Below, piece by piece: positions 29,400-54,721 of a DNA stretch of 61,600 bases. The notes beneath the pieces are model-generated. The model searched no databases. It had not been told where the DNA came from and worked only from the letters and a program-made list of their open reading frames with translations. Origin of the DNA: Escherichia phage PTXU04; sequence record NC_048193.1. One strand, given 5' to 3'. The position numbers and the translations under genes are program-made. How positions within the stretch are numbered: position 1 is the first letter of the stretch; every line of letters starts with the position of its first letter.

Positions 29400-29774
29400 A
29401 TGGACATGGGATATTACAACATGAACAAGCAAATCAGAGTGGAAATGCTTGTCGGCATGGTGACATTAACGTGGTCAATCGTGGCGGCAGTATTCAAACA
29501 GCCAGTCATTATTGATGAGTTAACTGGTATCATGCCTGGCGCATGGTGGGTATTCTCAGGCATTGTAATTGGTGGCGCTCAGATCTATATCTCCCGCAAC
29601 CCTGAGCGATGGATGGGAACATTCAGCCACTGGTGTGTAGCGTTCTTCAGTTGTATCTTCTGGTGTTATCTCGGCATGGCCGCACAAGCCGCCGCAGTCG
29701 GAGTAGTTCCCATCCTGATTTTCTGGTCTACCGCTGGCGTCACTTTATGGGAGTTGGCACATGTTCGAACTTAG
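29400..29774 (+). CDS. membrane protein (about 4 predicted TM segments)
   Basis: 124 aa; hydrophobic stretches LVGMVTLTWSIVAAVF, WWVFSGIVIGGAQIYI, WCVAFFSCIFWCYLGMAA, VGVVPILIFWSTAGVTLW; GGAG RBS. Confidence 0.45.
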   Translation: MDMGYYNMNKQIRVEMLVGMVTLTWSIVAAVFKQPVIIDELTGIMPGAWWVFSGIVIGGAQIYISRNPERWMGTFSHWCVAFFSCIFWCYLGMAAQAAAVGVVPILIFWSTAGVTLWELAHVRT

Positions 29775-29994
29775 TTCAATCCCGGTGGACGCTCCGTTAC
29801 CTTTCATTGCGATCGCAGTGTTATTCAACCTGGTACGCCATGCGTTGAATCTTCACCACGAACGTAAGAAGGAGGCAGCGGAAGAGGCCACGAACGAAAG
29901 GATTGTTGTGTTGTCGTCGAAGCTGGCGAAGGCGGAACAGACTATCGAGCACTTGAGGGAAGAGGTGGAACGATTGAAAAACAAAGGGGCTTAA
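29761..29994 (+). CDS. small TM plus coiled-coil protein (spanin-like or antiholin-like?)
   Basis: 77 aa; N-terminal TM (PFIAIAVLFNLV) then charged coiled coil; GGGAG RBS; stop lies in the loop of the bidirectional terminator. Confidence 0.4.
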   Translation: MFELSSIPVDAPLPFIAIAVLFNLVRHALNLHHERKKEAAEEATNERIVVLSSKLAKAEQTIEHLREEVERLKNKGA

Positions 29995-30005
29995 CGCCCC
30001 TTTTT
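29986..30005. terminator. bidirectional rho-independent terminator at the convergence of late (+) and early (-) blocks
   Basis: AAA GGGGC TTAAC GCCCC TTTTT; the stop codons of 29761-29994 (+) and 29991-30191 (-) both sit in the loop. Confidence 0.6.
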
Positions 30006-30191
30006 GATACTCGCTGCAATCTTCAGTTCGACAGGTACGCGATTGAGATCGCGGTGAATGCCTACATCCGGTGGTGCGGAAATACGTAGACCGACGTTAC
30101 CATTCTCAGAGTTCTCTACCGTCACGACAATATCGTTACCGATGTAGACGCTCTGACCTTCACGTCTGGTAATACGGAGTCCCTTAGCCAT
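29991..30191 (-). CDS. CsrA-like RNA-binding protein (carbon storage regulator homolog)
   Basis: ORF-track frame 29991-30257 trimmed to ATG 30191 (GGAG RBS 6 nt upstream). Product MAKGLRITRREGQSVYIGNDIVVTVENSENGNVGLRISAPPDVGIHRDLNRV aligns with E. coli CsrA ([21 protein letters not shown] ... VRIGVNAPKEVSVHREE), including the beta1 TRR and beta5 HR(D/E) RNA-binding residues. Confidence 0.6.
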   Translation of the reverse strand: MAKGLRITRREGQSVYIGNDIVVTVENSENGNVGLRISAPPDVGIHRDLNRVPVELKIAASIKKGR

Positions 30192-30417
30192 TCTTCTCCG
30201 CCTTAGCTTTCTTAGCTTTGATGACGCGACTGATCGCCACCAGTAAAGTAATGACACCAGACACGACCGGGAGATATTCTTCCGGTACCACAGCCTGGAA
30301 TAAATGCGGGGCAGTCTGCCACACTACTAATGCTGCATCAGGTACCGTGGTCAACACGGTAGTAACGGCGATACCGATAGTGATACCAGCGTCATGCAGC
30401 GCTTTGGATTTGTCCAT
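30184..30417 (-). CDS. holin (putative, two TM segments)
   Basis: 77 aa; two hydrophobic helices and a lysine-rich C-terminus (KAKKAKAEKNG); strong AAGGAG RBS; immediately downstream of the endolysin. Confidence 0.6.
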   Translation of the reverse strand: MDKSKALHDAGITIGIAVTTVLTTVPDAALVVWQTAPHLFQAVVPEEYLPVVSGVITLLVAISRVIKAKKAKAEKNG

Positions 30418-30473
30418 CTGTGAAGCTCCTTATATTGGCGTCCTTGCCAGGATTGACGACCTCGACTGGCCGC

Positions 30474-31004
30474 TTAGATGTTCACGCGGTTGGCGACCCA
30501 TCCATAAATGAATGAGCGATTTTTGGCGTTACTTTCGGTAAGCTCAATATACCGCACACACTGTAGGCTGTTAAGCATTTTCAATAATACTTTCGTACCA
30601 GCGCTACCACGCAACCGCAGGAAATCGTCCAGGGCATTAATCGTACGTTTACCGACCTTACCATCCACTACTAGGCCAGCGCCTGACGCGGCGTTGAGCG
30701 CACGCTGGAGGAATTTACCAGCCACCGCCGGACCCATGTTCACGCCAGTGTCTACCACTTCAGCACCGATTGCTGAGTCGAGTTCCGCCACCACGTAGAA
30801 TCCGGTGTTCACTACATAATCGTTGTAGTAAATCTCATACGCTGTAGATTGCGGCAAATCTTTCATGTGACCTTTGTACCCGGCGTTGCGAGCAACCTTC
30901 TCGGTAATTCCGTATTTGGTGGCACCGCCCGGATCATTCGGATGGTCCACGTATCCACCTTCGACCCGGATAATCTCTTCAATGATTTCGCGTACTGTAC
31001 TCAT
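30474..31004 (-). CDS. endolysin (GH108-like lysozyme with PG_binding_3-like domain)
   Basis: 176 aa; N-terminal VEGGYVDHPNDPGGATKYGIT matches the GH108 catalytic signature; AAAGGAG RBS. Confidence 0.8.
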   Translation of the reverse strand: MSTVREIIEEIIRVEGGYVDHPNDPGGATKYGITEKVARNAGYKGHMKDLPQSTAYEIYYNDYVVNTGFYVVAELDSAIGAEVVDTGVNMGPAVAGKFLQRALNAASGAGLVVDGKVGKRTINALDDFLRLRGSAGTKVLLKMLNSLQCVRYIELTESNAKNRSFIYGWVANRVNI

Positions 31005-44420: not shown

Positions 44421-44911
44421 AACCTTTCTACGCAAGCAAGACACCAAAGGAGTTACGCGATTGCTGGGGTACGCCCCAGTGGTTGATTGACCGCCTGTCG
44501 CTGGAGTTTGATTTCGCAATCGACGCGGCGGCAGATGAGCACAACAGAAAGTTCCCCCTGTATTTCAAGCAGGGATTAGGCTTTAACTGGGCGGACTTCT
44601 GCCCGGAAGGTAAATGGGTATGGAACAACCCTCCGTTCTCCTTAGTGGACCCGTGGGTGGATCAGTGGATACAGTGCAGCGAATCGGACCGTGGTGTGGT
44701 GTCAATCGTCAACGCACAGACTGCCGCTCGCTGGTTTCACAAGGCGCTGGAGGCTTGCTCGGAGGCCAGGTTTAGCATCGGGCGTGTGGCCTTCATTCAT
44801 CCCGTTACCGGAAAGCGTGTAGCCGGAAACAACCTGGGGCAAGTGCTGTTCGTGTTTGAACCGGGCAAGCTGGGCGAAAAAAGAATTGGCACTTTCAAAG
44901 GAACCAAGTAG
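44417..44911 (+). CDS. DNA N6-adenine methyltransferase (phage Dam-like)
   Basis: 164 aa; WGTPQWLIDRL ... FDFAIDAAA ... NPPFS motifs characteristic of the phage N6A-methyltransferase family. Confidence 0.8.
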   Translation: MKPFYASKTPKELRDCWGTPQWLIDRLSLEFDFAIDAAADEHNRKFPLYFKQGLGFNWADFCPEGKWVWNNPPFSLVDPWVDQWIQCSESDRGVVSIVNAQTAARWFHKALEACSEARFSIGRVAFIHPVTGKRVAGNNLGQVLFVFEPGKLGEKRIGTFKGTK

Positions 44912-44938
44912 AATGGATTACTTGACAAAGGAGGATGT

Positions 44939-45127
44939 ATGAAAATCACACCACTGAAGGAATGGATTGAAGGTCACCGCTCGTTAACGGCTGCGGCTGA
45001 AGTGCTCGACGTTCCAAAACAAAACCTGTCGTTTGCTTTGAACAAAGTGAAGGGCGCTACGTTTGTGCTGGAGGAAGACGACGGGACACTGCGGTTGTTA
45101 CGTGAGGTTGCAAAAAGGGGCGCATAA
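44939..45127 (+). CDS. hypothetical protein
   Basis: 62-aa ORF with AAGGAGG RBS; stop in the loop of the terminator at 45118-45142. Confidence 0.4.
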   Translation: MKITPLKEWIEGHRSLTAAAEVLDVPKQNLSFALNKVKGATFVLEEDDGTLRLLREVAKRGA

Positions 45128-45142
45128 GCGCCCTTAGTTTTT
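45118..45142. terminator. rho-independent terminator at the convergent junction
   Basis: GGGCGC-ATAA-GCGCCC stem-loop followed by TTAGTTTTT; the stop codons of 44939-45127 (+) and 45141-45323 (-) flank or overlap it. Confidence 0.5.
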
Positions 45143-45323
45143 ACATTAATATCAGCAGTTGCACACATCCTATAATCAGACCTACCAGGAAAATAGTCGC
45201 ACCCGCATAAAATAAAATCGTTGCATTATCGGTATCACTCACCACAGCTTTGAAAGACTTTACTATCCCCGATAAAGCCATCGCGATGATCGCTATCAAC
45301 ATTAAACCCGCAGCATAAAACAT
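45141..45323 (-). CDS. small membrane protein
   Basis: 60 aa; two hydrophobic helices (LMLIAIIAMALSGIV, ILFYAGATIFLVGLIIGCV). Confidence 0.4.
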   Translation of the reverse strand: MFYAAGLMLIAIIAMALSGIVKSFKAVVSDTDNATILFYAGATIFLVGLIIGCVQLLILM

Positions 45324-45332
45324 AATTACCTC

Positions 45333-45584
45333 TCAGTGAAATGTCAGTTTGAGTTGTTCAAAGATTACCGGATCATCAAGCTGAATCTCCAGTTCTTCAT
45401 CATGCACCTGATACTCTTCGACATCACTCGCCGCCAGCACCAGTTGCACACCGTCAACCACACCCAGTACAGCAAACACTCCCTGACTGCGGTCACTGTT
45501 TACGATACTGAGCATGTCGCTCAGCACGTCTCCCAGCCCGTTTGGGTTAACGCAAAGGTCGATATGTTTAGGTTCATTTGACAT
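45333..45584 (-). CDS. hypothetical acidic protein
   Basis: ORF-track frame 45333-45647 trimmed to ATG 45584 (AGGAGG RBS). Confidence 0.4.
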   Translation of the reverse strand: MSNEPKHIDLCVNPNGLGDVLSDMLSIVNSDRSQGVFAVLGVVDGVQLVLAASDVEEYQVHDEELEIQLDDPVIFEQLKLTFH

Positions 45585-45888
45585 GGCGGCTGGCCTCCTG
45601 TGCGTCAATGATTGCTTCGTTTGTGGCGACAATGAGATCCACCACATGCTTTGCGAGTACGGTCAGATTCCCGTGTCGCGCTTGATTCACCACGTTGATC
45701 GCGGTGTTGGTGTCCGTCATCATTTCCACGCCGTCAATCAGGTCGACAATGAATTTGTGGCGGTCGTACTCCCGGTTAAAGCTGGCTATGTCCGGGTGGT
45801 TATCAAGATGAAAGCAGCAGTGATAACCCTTTGGTAAATTGGCAACACGATCACCTACTCGCGGCCCGTCGATTAAAAGGATGGTCAT
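45574..45888 (-). CDS. hypothetical protein
   Basis: 104-aa ORF, translationally coupled to neighbours. Confidence 0.4.
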   Translation of the reverse strand: MTILLIDGPRVGDRVANLPKGYHCCFHLDNHPDIASFNREYDRHKFIVDLIDGVEMMTDTNTAINVVNQARHGNLTVLAKHVVDLIVATNEAIIDAQEASRHVK

Positions 45889-46136
45889 ATAAAGCTCGCC
45901 TTAATTAGCGCGGCCTCCCGGTGGCCTCTGTGAATGGTAACGACTCCAGCCGTTTCAAGTTTCTTCACCGCCTTGCGCACATGCTCTTTGTCGTAGCCGG
46001 TATAGGAGGCCAGTTCATCGAACGTTACAGGTGCGTCAGCCGATGCTATACAGCATAGCAGGTAACGACCGAACACGTTAACCTTGTGTTGCGCCATCTG
46101 GTAGTCTTCGCCCGGTGTGAATACCTTAATTGCCAC
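45885..46136 (-). CDS. winged-helix DNA-binding protein (putative transcriptional regulator)
   Basis: 83 aa; FDELASYTGYDKEHVRKAVKKLETAGVVTI resembles a MarR/winged-HTH recognition helix. Confidence 0.4.
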   Translation of the reverse strand: MAIKVFTPGEDYQMAQHKVNVFGRYLLCCIASADAPVTFDELASYTGYDKEHVRKAVKKLETAGVVTIHRGHREAALIKASFI

Positions 46137-46746
46137 GGTAGTAAGCCTCCACTGCGCTGGTTATCAAACTGATTTTGTCGTCATTAAAATCATCGGCATC
46201 ATACGCAGCTTTGACCGTGGCGATCACGTCGTTGGCTTTGTTAAGTTTAGATTCCAGGTCAACAACTCTGTCACCGAGACGGTTGGATTCTTTAATCATT
46301 TCTATAGCCTGACTGAACACGCCAGCAGTTGCTAACCCTTTGTCGGCATCCGTCGCCACGCGCAGACCTTCAACCCACTTGCGGAAATACTTCAGGGATT
46401 CGTCGTCCTGTTTAGCGTCGTTTTCCAGGTCTTCTACTCTACGACACAGACGGGTGTTACGCTCACCGCTGTTTCTCAACTCATCACGCAGAGTGGTTTC
46501 AGTCTGTTTGGCTTTCTCCAGTGCGCGCTCATAGTCATACACTTGTTGATTTAATGACTTCAGGTTTTGCTTTAAGATCTCCACTTGCTTAAGAGCATCA
46601 TTATACGCGTCGTTGCTCGGATAAATTACAGGTGCCGGGGCGTCAGCGTTACGCAGCTTGTTAGCCAGCGACTTGACGTTATTCATCGTCATACCTTCGG
46701 CGATCAGGACCAGTGCTTCATTAAAAGTAAGGGTGATAGTTTTCAT
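46126..46746 (-). CDS. coiled-coil hypothetical protein
   Basis: 206 aa; extended heptad-like charged regions. Confidence 0.45.
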   Translation of the reverse strand: MKTITLTFNEALVLIAEGMTMNNVKSLANKLRNADAPAPVIYPSNDAYNDALKQVEILKQNLKSLNQQVYDYERALEKAKQTETTLRDELRNSGERNTRLCRRVEDLENDAKQDDESLKYFRKWVEGLRVATDADKGLATAGVFSQAIEMIKESNRLGDRVVDLESKLNKANDVIATVKAAYDADDFNDDKISLITSAVEAYYRGN

Positions 46747-47009
46747 TTAACGCGCTCCACTTCGTAGGCAAATGCTGAGTAGGTGTTGGCCGCCAGCAGT
46801 CCGGCGGTCGGGGATACAGGTAATTTGAGTTTCTTCAATGCCAGGCGCACGACCATTACGCGCAACCAGATCACGGCTTGCTCCTTATCAGGTGTGGTTT
46901 GAGTGATACGACGGTGATTGTCATCGACAACGTAGTAGCCAGCGGCTTCACGTTTGATGTGGTAGGTTGCTTCTGCTTCACGCAGGATATTGATTTGGAA
47001 TCTGAACAT
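46743..47009 (-). CDS. hypothetical protein
   Basis: 88-aa ORF downstream of a predicted promoter at 47045-47073. Confidence 0.45.
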   Translation of the reverse strand: MFRFQINILREAEATYHIKREAAGYYVVDDNHRRITQTTPDKEQAVIWLRVMVVRLALKKLKLPVSPTAGLLAANTYSAFAYEVERVK

Positions 47010-47044
47010 GACTATTTACCCCATTGCTCGTTAGCGATAGGGTA

Positions 47045-47073
47045 AATATAGGTTAGTTAAATCTGACTGTCAA
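47045..47073 (-). promoter_or_regulatory. putative sigma70-like early promoter
   Basis: On the - strand: -35 TTGACA (47073-47068), 17-nt spacer, -10 TATATT (47050-47045); about 35 nt upstream of ATG 47009. Confidence 0.45.
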
Positions 47074-47078
47074 TAGAT

Positions 47079-47774
47079 TTATTCGTAGGCTTCTAACGCG
47101 AGTCTACAAATATGTGATCTAACGCAATCATTTTTGTGGAAGAGAATACCCTGAACGTCATCAGAGTCCTGGAACCGTGCTAACGCATCGCTGAGTCCGT
47201 CCGGCACGCCCTTCGGTAAGTCGCACTGAGTGATGTCACCGTTAACGACCACGATGCAGTTGTCACCGATACGCGTCAGGAAGAGTTTCATCTGCTTAGG
47301 TGTGACGTTCTGCGCTTCGTCGAGGATGATAAACGCATTGTCAAAGCTGCGACCCCGCATGTAGGCGAACGGTGCAATCTCAATCTTGCCGTGCTCCATG
47401 CAGTATTTGAAATGCGTCTCGCCCAGGCGTTTAATCAGCGTGTCCTTAACCGGACGGAAGTACGGATCAAACTTCTCTGCCAGACCTCCCGGCAGGAAGC
47501 CCATGTCTTCGTCAGCATTGAGTACGGGACGTGTGACAACGATGCGTTCGACAATCTTATCGGTGAGATACTCCGCAGCTTTGCAGGCTGCAATAAACGT
47601 TTTACCGCACCCAGCCTCGCCGCTCGCAAATATAAGTGACTTAGTTCGGATGGCCTCAAGATAGGATTCCTGATTTACGGTGCGCGGTTCAATCGGCGAT
47701 TTGTCTGCGCGGGTGACGGGGGAAGGGTTGGTGTTGAACTCTACAACTTCAGCGGTGTTGCGTTTCTTACTCAT
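47079..47774 (-). CDS. phoH: PhoH-like ATPase
   Basis: ORF-track frame 47079-47816 trimmed to ATG 47774 (GAGGTG RBS); Walker A GEAGCGKTF, Walker B ILDEAQN. Confidence 0.75.
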   Translation of the reverse strand: MSKKRNTAEVVEFNTNPSPVTRADKSPIEPRTVNQESYLEAIRTKSLIFASGEAGCGKTFIAACKAAEYLTDKIVERIVVTRPVLNADEDMGFLPGGLAEKFDPYFRPVKDTLIKRLGETHFKYCMEHGKIEIAPFAYMRGRSFDNAFIILDEAQNVTPKQMKLFLTRIGDNCIVVVNGDITQCDLPKGVPDGLSDALARFQDSDDVQGILFHKNDCVRSHICRLALEAYE

Positions 47775-47793
47775 AGAGCACCTCGTTTGAGAG

Positions 47794-47811
47794 GGGCGCG
47801 GAATTGCGCCC
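47794..47811 (-). terminator. GC hairpin between genes
   Basis: GGGCGC-GGAATT-GCGCCC stem-loop between the stop of 47820-48020 and the PhoH RBS. Confidence 0.35.
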
Positions 47812-47819
47812 ATCATTTA

Positions 47820-48020
47820 CTACATCCAGCCAGCAATCGCCCCCGGCAACCAGGTGAAAATGCCCACGATGCGTATGACAGTTTCAGCAGTGGAGTCGGA
47901 CGCGTTACCACCTCCAATATACGCCAGGCAGTGTACCAGGTTCAAGAACCAGCCGATCCAGCCGCCGATGAACACTATCCAAAGACCTAACACTGCCAAA
48001 AGACCAAAGTATTTACCCAT
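47820..48020 (-). CDS. small membrane protein
   Basis: ORF-track frame 47820-48107 trimmed to ATG 48020 (GGGGGAG RBS); two TM helices. Confidence 0.4.
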   Translation of the reverse strand: MGKYFGLLAVLGLWIVFIGGWIGWFLNLVHCLAYIGGGNASDSTAETVIRIVGIFTWLPGAIAGWM

Positions 48021-48501
48021 TTTTACGACTCCCCCGTGGCCGCGTAACGTGACGCGTGATGTTGTGCTGTTTGCACAGTTTATAAATGCGTGATGAAAAC
48101 ACCCCAATTACAGCAGCGTAATCGCTGGCGGTCATGGTTAGCATCGCTTTACGCAGATGATTGATGTCTACCTTCACGCCCTTCTCAGGACTTTTCCAGC
48201 CGTACTTCTTGCGCACCGTATCAAGCTGGCGCGGTAGGATCCCCAGCAGTTTGGCAGCTTCGACACGCGACTTACGCTCGACGATCATTTTGTTCATCGG
48301 CGTGTTTGCTACTGGTACCCGGTACCGCTCGATAGGTTGCCAGTTCTGCCAGACTACCCGATGTTTGTAACGATGGTTGACACGCTGGACCGCCCGATAT
48401 TTTCCTTTGTGCGTCACGACGCAGTAAGGTTTGTTGAGCACCGCAGACATACGTTCAGCCTGCTTGATGGCCTCGTCCAGTGTGTCACAGGTGATTGCCA
48501 T
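48013..48501 (-). CDS. putative DNA-binding protein
   Basis: 162 aa; basic, with HTH-like segment RVEAAKLLGILPRQLDTVRKKYGW. Confidence 0.4.
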   Translation of the reverse strand: MAITCDTLDEAIKQAERMSAVLNKPYCVVTHKGKYRAVQRVNHRYKHRVVWQNWQPIERYRVPVANTPMNKMIVERKSRVEAAKLLGILPRQLDTVRKKYGWKSPEKGVKVDINHLRKAMLTMTASDYAAVIGVFSSRIYKLCKQHNITRHVTRPRGSRKNG

Positions 48502-48692
48502 TAGCGACGAGCCTTACCACGGCTACGGCCAGGGAGTGCACGAACTTCTAAAGGAATGATGCGAACACCTTTACGGGTATAGCGCTTCGTGTACGATACG
48601 ATCTCGGTGCGCTGCGGTGGTGCCAGGTCACGCAGAGCAGCGGCGAAAGGTGTAGAGAAAGCGTTACCGAACAGCATTTTAAATAAGCTCAT
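48501..48692 (-). CDS. hypothetical basic protein
   Basis: 63-aa ORF with AGGAAA RBS, downstream of the promoter at 48728-48756. Confidence 0.4.
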   Translation of the reverse strand: MSLFKMLFGNAFSTPFAAALRDLAPPQRTEIVSYTKRYTRKGVRIIPLEVRALPGRSRGKARR

Positions 48693-48727
48693 TTTGATTT
48701 TCCTATTGTCGCGTTTGTAGAATAATG

Positions 48728-48756
48728 AATTTAGTATAGTCGTCCCTGACTGTCAA
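48728..48756 (-). promoter_or_regulatory. putative sigma70-like early promoter
   Basis: On the - strand: -35 TTGACA (48756-48751), 17-nt spacer containing CAGGGACG, -10 TAAATT (48733-48728). Confidence 0.35.
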
Positions 48757-48760
48757 GTAA

Positions 48761-49390
48761 TTAATCCGCGCTAATGAATGAATCTACATCCGGCGGCCAC
48801 ACGTCTTGCGATTGCGGCGGTAACGCGGGTTTGTTATTGAGTTTGGCGTAAGCCTTACACACCCACTCAACCTGGTACCGGGCATCATGCAGCGCGTTAT
48901 GATACTGGATATGTGCCGGACGCGTGCGGGGCATCTGCATACCTGCAAGCATCATGATTGTGCGCATGTCGTAGATATTCCAGTATTTCCACGGGTATTG
49001 ATGTCCATACGTGCTGATCACAGGGTTGGTTTGACGTAGCCACCATTCAAGCTGGGCGATGTCCATCACCGATCCGTTACCCCAAATGCCGGAGTTGCCC
49101 AGGTTGTATTTATAGAACCACTCACGCAGGCTACGCGCCACGTTGCGCGGGTCGCTGGTACCGTTGTACGCTTCAGCCCTGGCCGCTTCGTCCTGACTTT
49201 CCCACCACTTCAGGGTAGAAAGGCTGGGCGTGCCGTATTTCTGCGCCAGGTTGCGGTCCATGCGCTCGTAAAACTCTGCCACAATCTCACCGCTGGTAAT
49301 GTCAAACGCTACCAGGCCGATGGTAAGGATTGGACCGTTTGGCTCAACGCTGAGGTTCTCAACGTCTGCCATTACGTGAATATTACTCAC
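48761..49390 (-). CDS. 3'-5' exonuclease (DnaQ-like, DEDDh)
   Basis: 209 aa; ADVENL (Exo I D-x-E) and YHNALHDARYQ (Exo III H-x4-D) motifs. Confidence 0.55.
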   Translation of the reverse strand: MSNIHVMADVENLSVEPNGPILTIGLVAFDITSGEIVAEFYERMDRNLAQKYGTPSLSTLKWWESQDEAARAEAYNGTSDPRNVARSLREWFYKYNLGNSGIWGNGSVMDIAQLEWWLRQTNPVISTYGHQYPWKYWNIYDMRTIMMLAGMQMPRTRPAHIQYHNALHDARYQVEWVCKAYAKLNNKPALPPQSQDVWPPDVDSFISAD

Positions 49391-49626
49391 GGTTTAATCT
49401 CCTTCAGTGAGTCGCGCCATTCACCCGGTGGCAACTCAAGTTGGGGGCAGTCGGTGTCAAAGCACGTACCGATACCGCTTAACAGACCGTCTTCAGGCCA
49501 CCAGATAAAATTACGCAGCTTAGGTTCGCCGACGAACGCGTAAACAGTCCCGTCACTGTCAGCCGCCAGGTGTGTAGCGTTATCCGGTACATCGACATCG
49601 TGACCGTAATAATTTACTGTTTTCAT
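49387..49626 (-). CDS. hypothetical protein
   Basis: 79-aa ORF, 4-nt overlaps with flanking genes. Confidence 0.4.
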   Translation of the reverse strand: MKTVNYYGHDVDVPDNATHLAADSDGTVYAFVGEPKLRNFIWWPEDGLLSGIGTCFDTDCPQLELPPGEWRDSLKEIKP

Positions 49627-50156
49627 TTATTACTCTCCCCATCCAGTACAGCAGCACACAGGCTATCAACCTGCACCACGATCACCCGGTCCGAAAGCGC
49701 TTCGAATGCTGCGCAAACTTTAGGGTCATCCTCAAAGCACGTAAATTTCTCAGTGCCGTAGGTCTTCAGCAGGCGGAGCAGGGCATCAGCTTTGAACTCT
49801 TCCGCGCTGCGGTGGTCATCCATCGGTCGCATCTGCAACTTAATGAGCGTGCGGCTCAACTCCAGATCATTATGCAGGCGGTCCATCGTCGGCAGGTAGG
49901 CAGACTTACCGCGCCCGGTGAGGAATCGCACATCTTCGCCACTGGCTAACAGTTGTTTGATAATAGCCAACATGTTAGGGATCGGCTTATCACCACGGCA
50001 CGCACCATTAAACTGCGCCCAGGCTTCGGTGCTGTTGCGGTTGTCGCCAGTTGGCATCAGGTGCGCGCGGTGGCGATTGTCGTACAGGGTACCGTCTAAA
50101 TCACAGATGTAGATCATTTCAATATCATCTCCAGGACTTTGTAGAAAAAGTAACAC
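49623..50156 (-). CDS. HAD-superfamily phosphatase-like protein
   Basis: 177 aa; N-terminal ICDLDGTLYD (DxDGT motif of HAD phosphatases/nucleotidases). Confidence 0.5.
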   Translation of the reverse strand: MLLFLQSPGDDIEMIYICDLDGTLYDNRHRAHLMPTGDNRNSTEAWAQFNGACRGDKPIPNMLAIIKQLLASGEDVRFLTGRGKSAYLPTMDRLHNDLELSRTLIKLQMRPMDDHRSAEEFKADALLRLLKTYGTEKFTCFEDDPKVCAAFEALSDRVIVVQVDSLCAAVLDGESNK

Positions 50157-50172
50157 AGCACGATAAGAAATA

Positions 50173-50514
50173 TTAACGCGATGATTTGTTCCATAACTTT
50201 AAAGTCTCCGTAAAAATATACTCGGCCAGGTAGGTTAGTGCTTCATGGTTGTCATGGTCAACCCTGATCCCTACGTGATTTAAAACATCCCATGCTGAGT
50301 GTATAGCTTCGTGCATCACCAGTGACGGTGAAGGCTCCCTGATATACACCACACATGGCCCTATGTGCTCAACGGTAGCGAAGGCGTTTGTTAATGCGTA
50401 ATCATCGCCCTTGCGGTCCGGGAAGTCCTTCAGGTATTTTTCAAGACTGAAGTAGACCCGGAGTTTTCCGGGGTAGATTTTGAATTTGATGATGCCGTCT
50501 GCCATAGTACCCAC
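50173..50514 (-). CDS. small HExxH-motif protein (possible zinc metallopeptidase-like)
   Basis: 113 aa; HEAIHSAW contains a HExxH zinc-binding signature. Confidence 0.4.
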   Translation of the reverse strand: MGTMADGIIKFKIYPGKLRVYFSLEKYLKDFPDRKGDDYALTNAFATVEHIGPCVVYIREPSPSLVMHEAIHSAWDVLNHVGIRVDHDNHEALTYLAEYIFTETLKLWNKSSR

Positions 50515-50699
50515 TCGTTTCGCTCATCGCCCGGTACCAGCCAGCCTTCTTTCACCAGTTGGTCGCACGTTTCATCAAGACTGGCGGGAACAACCTTCGC
50601 CCCCGTCAGCGCCCAGCGGTGGCCGCCTACTTGCTGCGGGTAGTGGTACAGCTTCGCACCCGCTTTAAGCTCGACCGTCAGCACATAGCCGCGCATCAT
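50430..50699 (-). CDS. hypothetical protein (overlaps 50173-50514 in another frame)
   Basis: 89-aa ORF filling the gap to the next gene; the ~75-85 nt overlap lowers confidence. Confidence 0.3.
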   Translation of the reverse strand: MMRGYVLTVELKAGAKLYHYPQQVGGHRWALTGAKVVPASLDETCDQLVKEGWLVPGDERNEWVLWQTASSNSKSTPENSGSTSVLKNT

Positions 50700-50980
50700 G
50701 ACTTGCTTAACTCCAGACCGTCCAGAGTGAAGTCAAGGATTGCCGTCGGGTCATCCTTGCGGATCAGCTGCGCCATAATGCGTACAGCACGATCGCAGGT
50801 GTTTGGTGTGACCAGTGGCATCCCACCGCCGGAGATAATGCACGCCGGAATCTTATCGGCTTCCGTCACAATATACGTTGTGGTGAAACTGTATTTGTGA
50901 GTTTTAATGTTAGCGTGTGCTACGTTCATGCCTACAGCCATTGCCGCGTATGCAGCCACAATCATAATAATGTATTTCAT
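50696..50980 (-). CDS. secreted/periplasmic protein with signal peptide
   Basis: 94 aa; N-terminal MKYIIMIVAAYAAMAVGMNVAHA looks like a Sec signal peptide with AHA cleavage site. Confidence 0.45.
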   Translation of the reverse strand: MKYIIMIVAAYAAMAVGMNVAHANIKTHKYSFTTTYIVTEADKIPACIISGGGMPLVTPNTCDRAVRIMAQLIRKDDPTAILDFTLDGLELSKS

Positions 50981-51312
50981 TTTAAAGTCCTCAATGATAG
51001 GAAAAGTTTTTCGCGGCGCGACTCAAACGCCCGGCGACAGTCGTCGATTGCGGCTTGTGCTGTAAGGTACGCATTACTTTCGTACTCACGTTCATCGTTA
51101 GCGCGAGCAACGCATACCCATGTACCGTTACGATAACGCTTCAGTAAATGCGAATCGCGTTTGTATTGACATGCACCCATATTGTCAAAGCTGATCAGTT
51201 CCCAGCCTTCCGGTGCGATACTCAGTGCTTCGTTTACGTTCACTCGATTAACCCTCTGTGTTGTTGGTGAACTAAATATAATTGATGGCTTCCATGCCGT
51301 CAAGTAAATCAT
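50977..51312 (-). CDS. hypothetical protein (start uncertain)
   Basis: 111-aa ORF; a predicted promoter (51275-51303) lies inside its first codons, so an alternative GTG start at 51243 (AGAGGG RBS) is plausible. Confidence 0.4.
   Translation of the reverse strand: MIYLTAWKPSIIFSSPTTQRVNRVNVNEALSIAPEGWELISFDNMGACQYKRDSHLLKRYRNGTWVCVARANDEREYESNAYLTAQAAIDDCRRAFESRREKLFLSLRTLK
51275..51303 (-). promoter_or_regulatory. putative sigma70-like early promoter
   Basis: On the - strand: -35 TTGACG (51303-51298), 17-nt spacer, -10 TATATT (51280-51275). Confidence 0.4.
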
Positions 51313-51525
51313 TTACCAACTAGCAAAACATTTATCGGTCGGTTGGCGGATCATCCATTCACCATAAATAAACTTAATCGTTAGAAACGTGTCGTTGCGG
51401 TTACCTTTAATCGCCTTAACTTTTAGCGCCCGTCTAAGGTTCCGCCAGCGCGGCTCCCATACCAGATCGCCAGGGTTAAGTTTGCCGTAGGTAGTCAGGC
51501 GGAAGTGTGGTTTATTTGTTGCCAT
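51313..51525 (-). CDS. hypothetical protein
   Basis: ORF-track frame 51313-51573; likely start at ATG 51525 to limit overlap with the upstream gene. Confidence 0.35.
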   Translation of the reverse strand: MATNKPHFRLTTYGKLNPGDLVWEPRWRNLRRALKVKAIKGNRNDTFLTIKFIYGEWMIRQPTDKCFASW

Positions 51526-52165
51526 CGGATGGTACCCCACACAGCGCGTTAAGCGTGGACACATCAAGCGCAATCTCGGTTGACTGCGGTTTCTCGGTCG
51601 CCGGGATTAATTCAGCCGCTTCCGGCCAGGCTTTCAACAGCGCAGCAACATTGCGGAACGGCTTAAGCTGGGCTTTCAGTGTGGAGTGAAGGTTCTCGTA
51701 GTCCTTGCGCAGCGCCTTAGCGTCGGCATCGATCGCCATAAGCTCATCGCGTGCGGATTCATACGGGTAGACCAGACCTTCACCAACAGGCCAGGCGGGT
51801 ACGATGCAATGCTCGACGTCAGCGCCGCTGTCAGCGAACAATGACCGCGCCTCATCATAACGGTTGCCGTAGTGCAGACCGTCAATGCGTAAGTTGTGAC
51901 TGTGACCGCACACGTTGACGTAAAAGTAATCGCTCGTTACCTGAGCGTGAACAGTGCCGAACGCTTTTAAGTCGTCATTGATATGATCAGCGTCACGTTT
52001 GAGCGCCAAGATTTCCTCAATGCTCAGACCGGATTGCTTCAGGAAGTAGTCACGGATACGCACAGCCACCGCAGAGCGACGGGCGCAGATGGCCTTGTCG
52101 CGTTCGACGATACCGGATTTGTGCTCGGCGTTGCGTAAGATAGCGTCTATAATTGATTGTTTCAT
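51512..52165 (-). CDS. hypothetical protein
   Basis: 217-aa ORF; no confident motif (a CGHSHN segment is not enough to call a phosphoesterase). Confidence 0.45.
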   Translation of the reverse strand: MKQSIIDAILRNAEHKSGIVERDKAICARRSAVAVRIRDYFLKQSGLSIEEILALKRDADHINDDLKAFGTVHAQVTSDYFYVNVCGHSHNLRIDGLHYGNRYDEARSLFADSGADVEHCIVPAWPVGEGLVYPYESARDELMAIDADAKALRKDYENLHSTLKAQLKPFRNVAALLKAWPEAAELIPATEKPQSTEIALDVSTLNALCGVPSDGNK

Positions 52166-52863
52166 TATTTGTTAGCCTCATATACTGCACGGGCAAAGCC
52201 GCGCGGGGTTAGTGATCGGATGGTTTTAGTCTTCGCAGACTTGCCGCCTAACTTGTGGTACTGTTTGCTGTACCCTGGCGGGATGGGTATTGGCAATTTA
52301 ACAGGATACCGGAAGCCGTTACCCGTCCAAAGGTTTGTAGTCTTCGGATACATGTCGCGCGCTTCGATGTACTCAGGGAAGAACGGATTAATATCATCTT
52401 CCGGCAGGTACCCGGCAAACTCCCACGGCTGGAAAGTATAATCAGGCTTTTGCCATAGCGTTGATAATACTCCGCGCGGGTTCTCCACCATGTACGGCAC
52501 GTTAAACCAGCACCCTAAACCCTCGGCAATGCGTGCGGTCTTCGTGGCCTCAATCTGAAAATCAGGATTCTTCTCACGCTTGCGCGGGAATGCTGGCGCA
52601 CCGGATACCGCTAAATCCGTGCACGGTGGGAACGCAAATATTAAATCCGGTGTTCCCCACTCACCCGCGATCGCCTTCAGAGTCCACAGGCTATCAATCC
52701 AGGCGTTTACGTAGTGAATGTTTGGATGCTCCACTCGGCACCCGAATTTAGTGTAAGGCCCGTGGTCGCCCTCGTCCGCGTTGAAACAGTAGACTGTGTG
52801 ACCAGCCTCCGCCCACGGCTGACCCATCAGGCCGGACCCGTCGAACAGGGACCAGATGATCAT
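52165..52863 (-). CDS. DNA cytosine-C5 methyltransferase-like protein (compact)
   Basis: 232 aa; motif I-like LFDGSG, motif IV-like FPPCTDLAVSG (Pro-Cys), motif VI-like YMVENPRG (ENV-like). Unusually short for a C5-MTase; no obvious target-recognition domain. Confidence 0.45.
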   Translation of the reverse strand: MIIWSLFDGSGLMGQPWAEAGHTVYCFNADEGDHGPYTKFGCRVEHPNIHYVNAWIDSLWTLKAIAGEWGTPDLIFAFPPCTDLAVSGAPAFPRKREKNPDFQIEATKTARIAEGLGCWFNVPYMVENPRGVLSTLWQKPDYTFQPWEFAGYLPEDDINPFFPEYIEARDMYPKTTNLWTGNGFRYPVKLPIPIPPGYSKQYHKLGGKSAKTKTIRSLTPRGFARAVYEANK

Positions 52864-53096
52864 TGCATTTTCTCCAGACCTTTACGCGCACAGTCAACCA
52901 TGCAGCGTATGACGCCTTCAGGATCGTTGACATGCTCCAACATCATTTTACTGACAACGCGCGATATACCATACGTTTGACCTAACACGTCATCATAACC
53001 ACGCCAAACAAACATAATGCGGTCACCATCGCTTGAGATTTCACAGCGAAAACCGTCGATGTATACCAGTTCCAGCAGTTTCATAAAGTCGATCAT
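52860..53096 (-). CDS. hypothetical protein
   Basis: 78-aa ORF, coupled to neighbours. Confidence 0.4.
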   Translation of the reverse strand: MIDFMKLLELVYIDGFRCEISSDGDRIMFVWRGYDDVLGQTYGISRVVSKMMLEHVNDPEGVIRCMVDCARKGLEKMQ

Positions 53097-53278
53097 TGTC
53101 TTTTCTCCAGCCGCTCCAGTCGGTCGAACAGTTCATCAATCGCATCGTTACGTGTATCGCCACGCACGGTCTGAGGTCTACCGCAACCAGATAAACAATA
53201 CACTTCCTCTTTCAGTATTTCGCGTGCGGTAGGTTGCACTACTGGCGCGCCGCAGTGCTCGCAATAAGCCCATGCCAT
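53093..53278 (-). CDS. zinc-ribbon protein
   Basis: 61 aa; CEHCGAP ... CLSGCGRP (CxxC-x17-CxxxC). Confidence 0.4.
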   Translation of the reverse strand: MAWAYCEHCGAPVVQPTAREILKEEVYCLSGCGRPQTVRGDTRNDAIDELFDRLERLEKRQ

Positions 53279-53279
53279 G

Positions 53280-53507
53280 TTATTTCCCCCACCATTTCTT
53301 TTTATCGTTAAGCCAGGCTTGCGCCGCTTCCAGGCTGTCTAAGTTACCAGACCATTTGCCGTTATATTGTGCGTAATAAATACCGCGCAGCTTGTGAATC
53401 TCGTTACCGTTACGATCACGATAGTAGGCGGTGTCCATGTCAGCGATGAAGTAAAACAGTTTGAAGCCGCCCGGTGTTAACGCTAAAGCCTGCTCGATGG
53501 TCATCAT
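53280..53507 (-). CDS. hypothetical protein
   Basis: 75-aa ORF. Confidence 0.4.
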   Translation of the reverse strand: MMTIEQALALTPGGFKLFYFIADMDTAYYRDRNGNEIHKLRGIYYAQYNGKWSGNLDSLEAAQAWLNDKKKWWGK

Positions 53508-53698
53508 GATATTAATTCACCTATCGTTACGTTGAGCGCCGCAGCTAACTCGGTTAGAGTTTTCAGGCGCGGGTTGTTTGCTTTCAGTACCATGAACAGA
53601 GCGCCACGTTTCCAGCCTGCGCGCCGTTCCACCTCACTAAGACTTATGGCCTCCCGCTCGGCCAGGTATTGCACACGGGCTTTTAAATTAATCGCCAT
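53504..53698 (-). CDS. HTH (XRE/Cro-like) DNA-binding protein
   Basis: ORF-track frame 53504-53758; ATG 53698 chosen because the longer form would translate through the hairpin at 53704-53718. LSEVERRAGWKRGALFMVLKANNPRLKTLTELAAALNVTIGELI is HTH-like. No clear SD. Confidence 0.4.
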   Translation of the reverse strand: MAINLKARVQYLAEREAISLSEVERRAGWKRGALFMVLKANNPRLKTLTELAAALNVTIGELIS

Positions 53699-53703
53699 AG
53701 TTT

Positions 53704-53718
53704 GGGGGCCGAAGCCCC
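53704..53718 (-). terminator. GGGGC-UUCG-GCCCC tetraloop hairpin (- strand transcript)
   Basis: Same hairpin sequence as the + strand copies at 3527-3540 and 10636-10651; lies between the lipoprotein gene stop and the HTH gene start. Confidence 0.4.
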
Positions 53719-53726
53719 ACCCTTTA

Positions 53727-53912
53727 TTACTTTTCGCCACCCTTAGCCGCAGCATCACGGGAAGCCTGAGCGTTCTCGGCGCGTTGCTGCGCGTTAGGTG
53801 AATCCGACTCAGCGCGCCCGGTTTGACCGGATACGTTTGGATTGTACCCGACGTTGGCAGAGCAACCAGCCAGCAGAGTAGCCAGAACGATAGCGATGAT
53901 AGATTTAGACAT
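53727..53912 (-). CDS. small lipoprotein (signal peptide with lipobox LLAGC)
   Basis: ORF-track frame 53727-54050 trimmed to ATG 53912 (AGGAG RBS 8 nt upstream); MSKSIIAIVLATLLAGCSANVG is a canonical lipoprotein signal; 61 aa. Confidence 0.5.
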   Translation of the reverse strand: MSKSIIAIVLATLLAGCSANVGYNPNVSGQTGRAESDSPNAQQRAENAQASRDAAAKGGEK

Positions 53913-54090
53913 GTTTGAAGCTCCTATTGTTTGTGATGGAAAGGAGGCCGCCACCACGTCGACCATAAAATTTGTTAACGCCAGAGTTCTACCGGAAGAC
54001 CGAACACGAACCGGAGAACCGCCCACACTGCAACCATTGACATCACCCACAACGCCAGGGAGAAGGCAAGACCTGTGATTATGCTTTGCA

Positions 54091-54225
54091 TTACAACCGC
54101 CTTAATTGTGTGATAATGTCGTTAAAGGTGGCGTAGTCGCACGTCATAACCCACAGCGCTGACAGTATGAAAATGGCGATTGACAGTTTAAGTGCCGCGC
54201 TTGCGAATACATTAAAACCAGCCAT
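54091..54225 (-). CDS. small hydrophobic protein (tentative, below ORF-track cutoff)
   Basis: Hand-translated 44-aa ORF MAGFNVFASAALKLSIAIFILSALWVMTCDYATFNDIITQLRRL with one predicted TM helix; start overlaps the end of 54212-54571. Confidence 0.25.
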   Translation of the reverse strand: MAGFNVFASAALKLSIAIFILSALWVMTCDYATFNDIITQLRRL

Positions 54226-54571
54226 AGATCCCCCCGCAGTGTTTCATTGCGTCGTACAGGTTAGAAAATGCCATACCTTGTGTAAGGCCGTTCATGGTGT
54301 ACCATTTACCGTTACGCTCGTCCAGCTTGATAGCCCGGTTTAACGCATTGTGATAAAGGGCGTTCCCACCGTACACGCGGACCATGTAAACTTCCCCGTT
54401 GCGTGCGGTCACTGACACGGTGATCAGATGACCTTCCTCGGTACCCACCAGGGTAGCACCGTCACAAAAGTAAATGTTATCGCCCTGGTGCTCGCTGCGC
54501 TCCAGCGGAAAGTCTGTAATGTGCGCGACGGCGGCAATAATTCTCGGTAAGTTACTCACAGGAAACCCCAC
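54212..54571 (-). CDS. hypothetical protein
   Basis: 119-aa ORF. Confidence 0.45.
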   Translation of the reverse strand: MGFPVSNLPRIIAAVAHITDFPLERSEHQGDNIYFCDGATLVGTEEGHLITVSVTARNGEVYMVRVYGGNALYHNALNRAIKLDERNGKWYTMNGLTQGMAFSNLYDAMKHCGGIYGWF

Positions 54572-54721
54572 ATTTCACAAATATATTTCACGGTTGCCGA
54601 TATTGCGATCAGCGTCATGCAAGCACTTAACACAGCCACAAAATGATCTTTCACAGGAACCCCCACAACGTTAACGACAGATAACCCAGCGTTACATAGA
54701 AACCGATTGTTAATGTAGTGC

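Follow-up and report, generated by a model that had tools for sequence, protein, structure and literature searches.

Small envelope-targeted accessory proteins of Escherichia phage PTXU04, with a lipoprotein in a variable gene slot as a candidate for superinfection exclusion

Phage T4, a virulent phage, makes two small early exclusion proteins, Imm in the inner membrane and Sp (spackle), which is periplasmic and has a cleavable signal peptide. From the outer membrane (OM), the small periplasm-facing lipoprotein Llp of the virulent phage T5 blocks FhuA (PMC9586334), and Rtp45 acts on LptDE, to which it binds partly by beta-strand addition (PMC12685063). Exclusion, with the receptor distorted from the periplasmic side, is the best-documented role of small OM lipoproteins in virulent coliphages (PMC9586334, PMC12685063). 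Here we compare these systems with gp71, a 61-amino-acid (aa) lipoprotein, and with the other small envelope proteins that are encoded together with it in Escherichia phage PTXU04. The window that we analysed is the whole 61,600-bp genome of this phage, and all coordinates are the same as in NC_048193. PTXU04 is the type phage of the genus Xuquatrovirus and the window is as long as the genome published for it (Korf et al. 2019, PMC6563267); it is a podovirus of about 60 kb whose biology has been described as largely enigmatic (PMC11990801). The best explanation of the set is that these are accessory genes whose small products would reach every one of the three envelope compartments in an infected cell, and for gp71 the best-fitting reading of our analysis is superinfection exclusion, to which we assign a probability of about 40%.

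Five open reading frames (ORFs) had been singled out as envelope-targeted in the original prediction, and all five are found on the minus strand at exactly the positions it gave. Four of them are annotated, gp71 (PTXU04_00071), gp62 (PTXU04_00062), gp47 (PTXU04_00047) and gp54 (PTXU04_00054), and the coding sequence coordinates in the supplement of Adler et al. 2025 (PMC11879866), in which gp71 is already called a "phage lipoprotein", match the ORFs found here. The fifth, a 44-aa ORF at 54091-54225, has no annotation in PTXU04 and is conserved and translationally coupled. Two more had been overlooked, gp72, with one transmembrane (TM) segment, and a 36-aa TM ORF at 54556-54666 that we call tm36. 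The candidates sit in one leftward block of small genes, running from 61352 down to 45141. The closest database relatives are Pondi (88% identity over 90% of the region) and then HelliStehle/Bas95 (56% covered), with genome-wide identities to PTXU04 of 84% and 58%, and the metagenomic loci L004, L005, L018, L019 and L020 and the relatives L012 and L015 were also compared. Judged from these comparisons, the small envelope-protein genes are real and under purifying selection. All six main ORFs have Shine-Dalgarno-like sites, and the codon-level ratio of non-synonymous to synonymous differences (pN/pS) is 0.08-0.3 in most comparisons with the relatives; the exceptions, at 0.45-0.84, are a few alignments that are short or gapped (gp47, tm36 and one gp72 comparison). 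The most constrained gene of the set is gp71, with pN/pS 0.08-0.09, and its features are as follows.

gp71 (PTXU04_00071): 53727 to 53912, minus strand, a 61-aa prolipoprotein
gp71 signal peptide: 53865 to 53912, minus strand, MSKSIIAIVLATLLAG ahead of Cys17
Codon of the predicted lipidated Cys17: 53862 to 53864, minus strand, in the lipobox LLAG-C
Invariant unstructured motif VGYNPNVSGQTGRAESD of gp71: 53802 to 53852, minus strand
C-terminal helix of gp71: residues 40-58

The canonical lipobox that had been attributed to gp71 is indeed there: MSKSIIAIVLATLLAG is followed by CS, with a lysine in the n-region, a hydrophobic core of 10 residues, the motif L-A-G-C and a serine at position +2. The start codon is preceded at 7 nucleotides (nt) by the Shine-Dalgarno sequence TAGGAG. 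The lipobox cysteine is invariant across the family alignment, and with the Pfam profile LPAM_1 six of six family members reach 19.3 bits, under the cut-off of 20. Since the +2 residue is serine and no aspartate is present (the Lol-avoidance rule), sorting to the OM is predicted; the same position holds alanine in the distant member P0013, and threonine or alanine in the type B lipoproteins described below. We regard gp71 as a predicted OM lipoprotein, with lipidation and sorting according to the Lol and Lsp rules, and this localisation call, like the others for the set, comes from rule-based sequence checks and from conservation.

The conservation of gp71 is unevenly distributed. Hardly any variation is seen in the family over the first 21 residues of the mature protein (CSANVGYNPNVSGQTGRAESD), the C-terminal 24 residues vary, and P0013, which has 64 aa and 45% identity, keeps the core GYxxNxSGQTGRAES. 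An AlphaFold2 (AF2) model of gp71 has residues 16-39 disordered and a single helix at 40-58, with a predicted local distance difference test score (pLDDT) of 61 and a predicted template modelling score of 0.26. From this we infer that the conserved disordered segment, anchored at the inner face of the OM, may be a linear motif that folds onto a partner. Besides the lipidated cysteine there is no cysteine in mature gp71, and only two of its 45 residues are proline. The C-terminus is hydrophilic (…AAAKGGEK), and its last residue varies between K, W, Q, R and N in the family.

On these criteria gp71 is the only credible lipoprotein of PTXU04. A lipobox scan of the genome in six frames found one other candidate, an ORF of 95 codons at 14100-14387 on the plus strand, in the +1 frame within the structural gene gp16 (12626-14896). 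This ORF has a perfect lipoprotein signal, MTGKKRLLLSILVSLNLLG followed by C, with a GAGGGGAG site upstream, and mimics an embedded o-spanin. It is absent from Bas95, and of the nine differences from Pondi six change the amino acid in its own frame, compared with one in the frame of gp16; it is probably spurious and not under selection in its own frame.

Relatives of gp71 are few. Among 50,697 phage records the only homologue is that of Pondi, and none was found in 72,556 plasmids (tblastn, E <= 10), in 5,426 E. coli genomes or in IMG/VR. A search of 5.8 billion proteins gave five close clusters, all of 61 aa, and a profile search of 1.84 billion representatives gave one distant 64-aa lipoprotein and two spurious repeat proteins. 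There was no match for gp71 in PADLOC or for the mature sequences in NCBIfam. Two family assignments were tried and rejected. To the colicin release family (BRP; Lysis_col, PF02402) there is a match by eye (C-x-A-N…V-x-G-x-T), and the Pfam score is 12.8 bits against a cut-off of 27 (E 0.11); hhalign of the mature part alone against real BRP genes fetched from plasmids gave 0.5% probability, with shuffle p values of 0.04-0.34. The similarity to the alanine-zipper lipoproteins Lpp/OprI (NF040598; E 2e-5, 25 bits against a cut-off of 43) was lost without the signal peptide, and the C-terminal lysine is not conserved.

The gene lies in a segment that is exchanged as a unit, directly upstream of a conserved regulator gene.

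Replaceable cassette: 53698 to 53972, minus strand, made up of a 62-nt leader, gp71 and the GGGGCTTCGGCCCC hairpin, and bounded by the stop codon of gp72 and the start codon of gp70
gp70: 53504 to 53698, minus strand, a 64-aa helix-turn-helix (HTH; XRE-like) protein, phrog_8 transcriptional regulator

The true start of gp70 is probably the ATG at 53698 and not the annotated GTG at 53755, which overlaps gp71, because its homologues in L004, L005, L012, L015, L018, L019 and L020 all begin at the equivalent methionine. Between this ATG and the double stop TAATAA of gp71 there is a hairpin, GGGGC-UUCG-GCCCC, at 53705-53718, with a C(UUCG)G tetraloop and no T-run, which may be an element of RNA stability or translational control. 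Compared with Bas95, L005 and L015, the nucleotide homology of PTXU04 ends at about 53973-53979, at the gp72 stop codon, and resumes at 53677-53697, at or just inside the start of gp70. The 275 nt in between correspond in these three phages to a segment of 159 nt that encodes an unrelated 57-aa lipoprotein, type B, which is Bas95_0074 in Bas95, with an invariant ALIGC lipobox and an h-region of variable length. L018, a metagenomic relative of 59 kb, has a 32-aa TM peptide that is not a lipoprotein in the slot, and in the distant L012 a lipoprotein of type A, the type of PTXU04, is followed directly by the HTH gene. In the distant L019 (1581-2195) and L020 (114-728) a lipoprotein of about 200 aa is found just upstream of a gp70-like HTH gene, and it has a Trypsin_2 peptidase domain (36 bits, above the Pfam cut-off). 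A periplasmic lipoprotein protease encoded by a phage is unusual. The slot upstream of the conserved HTH gene is hence occupied in related phages by at least four unrelated envelope proteins, three of them lipoproteins. With the HTH gene as bait there was no match in IMG/VR, and a single metagenome scan gave three loci.

Three loci of the block, the lipoprotein slot, gp47 and gp62, have combinations of alleles that are discordant among the phages. Together with the near-identical flanks, this points to independent recombination of accessory cassettes, which is characteristic of accessory conflict genes and not of core lysis machinery. In a genome-wide CRISPRi-ART screen on BL21 the genes gp47, gp54, gp62, gp71 and gp72 were all scored as "Not Fit", with gp71 at -1.11 against a threshold of -1.1 and p 0.50 (PMC11879866). 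This agrees, weakly, with an accessory role that is dispensable in the laboratory.

We hypothesize that gp71 would use its invariant unstructured segment, CSANVGYNPNVSGQTGRAESD, to bind an envelope protein of the host on its periplasmic side, and that the infected cell, and the debris left from it, would then no longer allow further phages to adsorb or their DNA to enter, in the same way as Llp with FhuA and Rtp45 with LptDE. Each of the other small proteins would modify the envelope independently and would belong, like gp71, to an accessory class driven by conflict: gp62 a disulfide-bonded soluble protein in the periplasm, and gp47, gp54, gp72 and the 44-aa ORF peptides with one or two spans in the inner membrane. 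These compartments parallel those of T4 Sp, for gp62, and T4 Imm, for gp47 and gp54, a comparison from established knowledge and one of place, with no homology shown. gp71 resembles Llp and Cor (phrog_1119) in outline, as it is a prolipoprotein of about 60 aa from a virulent coliphage, with a canonical lipobox, a predicted position in the periplasm-facing leaflet of the OM, and dispensability in the laboratory. It shares with Rtp45 and Bas18_0026, which target LptDE in small siphophages, the character of a periplasmic OM lipoprotein of about 6 kDa, and binding by beta-strand addition would suit the unstructured segment of gp71. There is however no detectable homology, the virion type and the genomic context are different, and there is no sign that PTXU04 uses LptD.

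The original prediction had read the set as superinfection-exclusion or receptor-masking factors. Its localisation calls hold for the OM lipoprotein, for the protein exported by Sec and for the small proteins of the inner membrane, and all these genes are indeed remote from those for lysis, but for the function itself there is no homology to known exclusion proteins, and several findings weigh against it. A search of PHROGs at E <= 0.01 gave no match to gp71, although the library includes phrog_1119, the Cor/Llp exclusion proteins, and neither did a search of all PDB chain sequences at E <= 10, a set expected to include the FhuA-Llp and LptDE-Rtp45 complexes. Unlike Llp and Cor, to which it has no sequence similarity, gp71 lacks an intramolecular disulfide (described for them in PMC9586334), is largely unstructured instead of folded, and is located beside an HTH gene and not a receptor-binding-protein gene: it is flanked by gp72 and gp70, and the fibre genes gp4, gp17 and gp18 are at 3.5-18.1 kb. 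The lipoproteins of PTXU04 and Pondi are 97% identical, yet the receptor-binding tip of gp4 differs between the two phages. The relative Bas95 needs O-antigen as its essential receptor (PMC11990801), and this counts against exclusion because a periplasmic lipoprotein could not mask a glycan; if PTXU04 recognises only lipopolysaccharide (LPS), there would be nothing to mask. The "Not Fit" scores are also weak in themselves, as the holin and the DNA polymerase scored likewise and false negatives are acknowledged by the authors (PMC11879866).

One observation that mildly favours exclusion, and is suggestive at most, is the co-variation of the fibre genes with the type of lipoprotein, since gp17 and gp18 are full-length in PTXU04 and Pondi, which have type A, and truncated in Bas95, which has type B. 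There are only two clades, however, the pattern is confounded by phylogeny and it is contradicted by gp4; these limits belong with the objections above.

The fibre genes of PTXU04 are three, gp4, gp17 and gp18. gp17 and gp18 (14896-18134, plus strand) encode paralogous tail-fibre proteins of about 540 aa, which are about 51-54% identical over the C-terminal 260 residues or so in cross-hits between PTXU04 and Pondi, and their middle segments (about residues 142-279) differ between these two phages. The Bas95 proteins are truncated to about 217 aa with only the N-terminal 140 residues kept. Residues 226-481 of the gp4 fibre (3561-5009, plus strand) resemble the L-shaped tail fibres of T5-like phages (BF23, and LtfA of DT57C), and some of the matching records annotate the region as a chaperone of endosialidase. 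The similarity suggests that the C-terminal half of gp4 recognises a glycan, LPS or O-antigen.

It is quite possible, if still short of probable, that the set manipulates the envelope for some other purpose. The proteins would then adjust the physiology of the host envelope to the benefit of the phage itself. Candidates are inhibition of a periplasmic or membrane-bound sensor of anti-phage defence or abortive infection, damping of envelope stress, a block of vesicle or decoy release, altered division or transport, and the timing of lysis. Dispensability, turnover of cassettes and orphan sequences apply equally to this explanation, the O-antigen requirement of Bas95 leaves little for a periplasmic lipoprotein to mask, and the gp62 homologues near the left end of T7-like genomes (see below) also fit it. 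The Trypsin_2 lipoprotein in the slot suggests moreover an enzymatic action on a periplasmic target and not a simple capping of a receptor. Against it, no specific target can be named, there is no match to PADLOC or to anti-defence families, and exclusion is the documented role for lipoproteins of this kind. A more general proposal, which we consider doubtful, is that the locus is a dedicated and recombination-prone "envelope effector slot" of Xuquatrovirus-like phages, where each occupant is tuned to a different OM or periplasmic target, and that gp71 would represent a new class of exclusion lipoproteins that acts through a short disordered linear motif and not a folded domain. A bolder variant of the same proposal would let the slot lipoprotein also supply the missing OM step of lysis in a phage without spanins.

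A role for gp71 in lysis alone has to be weighed against the gene content around the holin and the endolysin.

Lysis neighbourhood: 29400 to 31004, with gp26 (plus strand), gp27 (plus strand), gp28 (CsrA-like, minus strand), gp29 (holin, minus strand) and gp30 (endolysin, minus strand)

The holin gp29 (phrog_1356) and the GH108-type endolysin gp30 occupy 30184-31004, and beside them, at 29400-29994, are gp26 (124 aa, three to four TM segments) and gp27 (77 aa, a TM segment and a coiled coil, with a weak PspB-like match), neither with an assigned function. None of the candidates had been thought to be adjacent to the lysis genes, and we agree: they are 14-24 kb from this neighbourhood, with gp71 23 kb from the holin and endolysin. 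No lipoprotein or i-spanin is present in the lysis neighbourhood, and no i-, o- or u-spanin is recognisable in the whole genome. When every start codon in six frames was scanned for an N-terminal TM segment followed by a soluble tail, the only real genes found were gp27, gp62 and gp71. It had been conceded beforehand that gp71 could prove to be an o-spanin with a separate i-spanin, and no such partner exists anywhere in the genome. A u-spanin of the T1 gp11 type was considered and rejected, as it needs a C-terminal TM segment and the C-terminus of gp71 is hydrophilic.

We find it improbable that gp71 is the OM disruptor, either as an o-spanin whose partner is far away or of an unusual kind (the options being gp27, gp72 and the 44-aa ORF) or as a stand-alone permeabiliser like the colicin release lipoproteins. 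The idea has some appeal, as no spanin is annotated or detectable beside the holin and endolysin and gp71 is the sole real lipoprotein; like the o-spanin of lambda Rz/Rz1 it is a small OM lipoprotein of a phage with a Gram-negative host, and with the two small TM ORFs ahead of it the arrangement bears a superficial resemblance to a "separated" spanin pair. Taken together, the periplasmic parts of gp27 and gp71 would also come to about 92 aa, more than the 62 aa of the shortest known spanin pair (PMC6139136), and the weak Lysis_col match points the same way. The partners however do not suit. gp27, 24 kb from gp71, has an acidic N-flank and R, R, K and K after the TM segment, and its coiled coil is predicted to be cytoplasmic because of the positive-inside rule (N-out/C-in, the opposite of an i-spanin); the tails of gp72 and the 44-aa ORF are only 13-17 residues long. 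In the census of Kongari et al. the 528 two-component spanin pairs are embedded, overlapped or separated with a largest gap of about 700 bp, far below 23 kb, and 91 of 677 phages have no spanin at all (PMC6139136). In further contrast to the Rz/Rz1 type, gp71 has neither a Pro-rich region nor a periplasmic cysteine, there is no i-spanin with a periplasmic coiled coil, and the occupant of the slot is not conserved in close relatives. The parts are not co-conserved as a complex would need, because the L018 slot holds a TM peptide that is not a lipoprotein and L012 has a lipoprotein without the upstream TM ORFs. The colicin-lysis similarity, finally, is gone once the signal peptide is removed.

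Phages often carry small accessory genes for envelope-targeted products, and nothing in the set is surprising in kind. PTXU04 is however one of few non-model coliphages with a genome-wide knock-down map, and no function has been assigned to roughly three in four of its important genes or to almost any of its accessory genes. Should gp71 and its slot-mates prove to act in exclusion, they would add lipoprotein families unrelated in sequence to Llp/Cor and Rtp45, and they would be a pointer to the terminal receptor or entry route of this phage group. The variable slot is a natural experiment on specificity. What the present analysis adds is that the genes are real and constrained, that membership in the spanin, colicin-release, Lpp and Llp families is excluded, that an envelope slot exists beside the HTH gene, and that gp62 is linked to an exported family near the left end of T7-like genomes; it also flags PTXU04 as a spanin-less phage.

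The exported protein of the set, gp62, is represented by the following features.

gp62 (PTXU04_00062): 50696 to 50980, minus strand, a 94-aa exported protein
gp62 signal peptide: 50912 to 50980, minus strand, with predicted cleavage between AHA and N
gp62 hypervariable island: 50762 to 50908, minus strand

The Sec signal peptide proposed for gp62 is found again as MKYIIMIVAAYAAMAVGMNVAHA ahead of N, with an n-region MK, an h-region at residues 3-18, the c-region NVAHA-N with alanine at -3 and -1, and a predicted cleavage. It is invariant across the family and is followed by a hydrophilic mature domain with a beta3-alpha-beta2 arrangement and, in the family alignment, two invariant cysteines, C47 and C62, which fit a periplasmic disulfide. 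The DNA of the signal peptide is 94-99% identical in the relatives and the central 49 codons are unalignable. The AF2 model has a pLDDT of about 80 over the mature domain and matches uncharacterised proteins of T7-like phages in BFVD (Foldseek template modelling scores of 0.6-0.8). ORF11 of phage LIMEzero is a true homologue (hhalign 95.6%, E 1.2e-8), with a signal peptide that ends VHA before A, two conserved cysteines and the C-terminal motif L-x-[FLV]-T-[LI]-[DN]-G. The identity is however only about 20% and no member of the ORF11 family has an assigned function, so that the comparison gives context, an exported protein of the early region that is widespread in podophages of enterobacteria, and no mechanism. 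In LIMEzero and several T7-like genomes of about 42 kb (Autographivirales) the gp62 homologues are 3.4-5.7 kb from the left end, and that of LIMEzero is upstream of the annotated early-region terminator. The neighbouring gp63 (50977-51243, minus strand) is an insertion in PTXU04 and Pondi only; in Bas95, L004 and L005 the upstream sequence joins the gp62 start codon directly.

The remaining members are small membrane ORFs.

gp47 (PTXU04_00047): 45141 to 45323, minus strand, 60 aa with two spans, the final gene of the leftward block, immediately ahead of the terminator at 45116-45135
gp54 (PTXU04_00054): 47820 to 48020, minus strand, 66 aa with two spans and a conserved loop HCL(A/S)YIGGG
gp72 (PTXU04_00072): 53975 to 54091, minus strand, a 38-aa single-pass peptide with a hydrophobic span at residues 4-26
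44-aa ORF: 54091 to 54225, minus strand, single-pass, equivalent to Bas95_0076
tm36: 54556 to 54666, minus strand, a 36-aa membrane ORF with a GTG start, in an insertion of about 78 nt

The tiny membrane proteins of the original prediction are recovered as such, gp47 and gp54 with two hydrophobic spans each and the 44-aa ORF with one. The membrane ORFs have no match in PADLOC, Pfam or NCBIfam, and in PHROGs the only match is that of gp54 to phrog_6006 (E 2.4e-8, profile positions 6-58 of 58), a family without known function. gp54 is 64-83% identical in Pondi and Bas95, with pN/pS 0.23-0.25. gp47 is retained as the same type in L004 and L005, and in Pondi and Bas95 it is exactly replaced by a different 64-aa ORF, also with two spans, between flanks that are 94-100% identical. 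gp72 is 84-92% identical in Pondi and Bas95, with pN/pS 0.16-0.32 (0.84 in one gapped alignment), and its ATG shares bases with the stop codon of the ORF ahead of it (TAATG). That ORF, of 44 aa, overlaps the gp73 stop and the gp72 start, has a GGGGGG Shine-Dalgarno-like site, and is 86% identical at the aa level in Pondi, Bas95 and the metagenomic L004 (pN/pS 0.20-0.25). In L005, at 5929-6063, a deletion fuses the 44-aa ORF (MAGF…) to the body of gp72, which means either that the phage can do without the first of these small TM peptides or that the roles of the two overlap in part. The insertion that holds tm36 is flanked by a 16-nt direct repeat, GTGGGGKTTCCTGTGA, that duplicates the translation start of gp73; tm36 is found in PTXU04 and L005 only, being absent from Pondi, Bas95, L004 and L015, and it is the weakest of the set, with no clear Shine-Dalgarno site, one relative to compare and pN/pS 0.59 on three differences.

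That some of the tiny ORFs (tm36, the 44-aa ORF and gp72) are chance hydrophobic frames that are not expressed is very improbable: they are only 36-44 codons long, two of them are missing from the PTXU04 annotation, tm36 has the weaknesses just given and the lipobox ORF in gp16 illustrates that convincing signals do arise by chance, but the 44-aa ORF and gp72 stay open in three to four diverged relatives with pN/pS 0.16-0.32 (apart from the gapped alignment at 0.84), they have stop/start overlaps with their neighbours and Shine-Dalgarno-like sites, a TM-like window occurs in only about 2% of random 60-mers with the amino-acid composition of PTXU04, and for gp71, gp62, gp54 and gp47 the explanation is effectively excluded.

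The leftward genes had been called an early block, and this label is plausible on account of the leftward operon organisation, the strand of the promoters and the gp62 homologues near the left end of T7-like genomes. The five top sigma-70-like promoter matches of the region are all on the strand of the block, which is closed by a bidirectional terminator at 45116-45135. Sigma-70-like promoters lie at 61415-61386, 60607-60579, 48756-48728 and 47073-47045; the total number of such matches in the region is not above the shuffled expectation. Terminal repeats were sought to orient the genome entry, and there are none in the deposited sequence. The 243 nt at 44900-45142, which comprise gp46 and the bidirectional terminator, are 100% identical in PTXU04, Pondi and Bas95, with the adjoining gp47 ORF wholly replaced, and this stretch looks like the boundary of a recombination hot-spot or a strongly constrained element.

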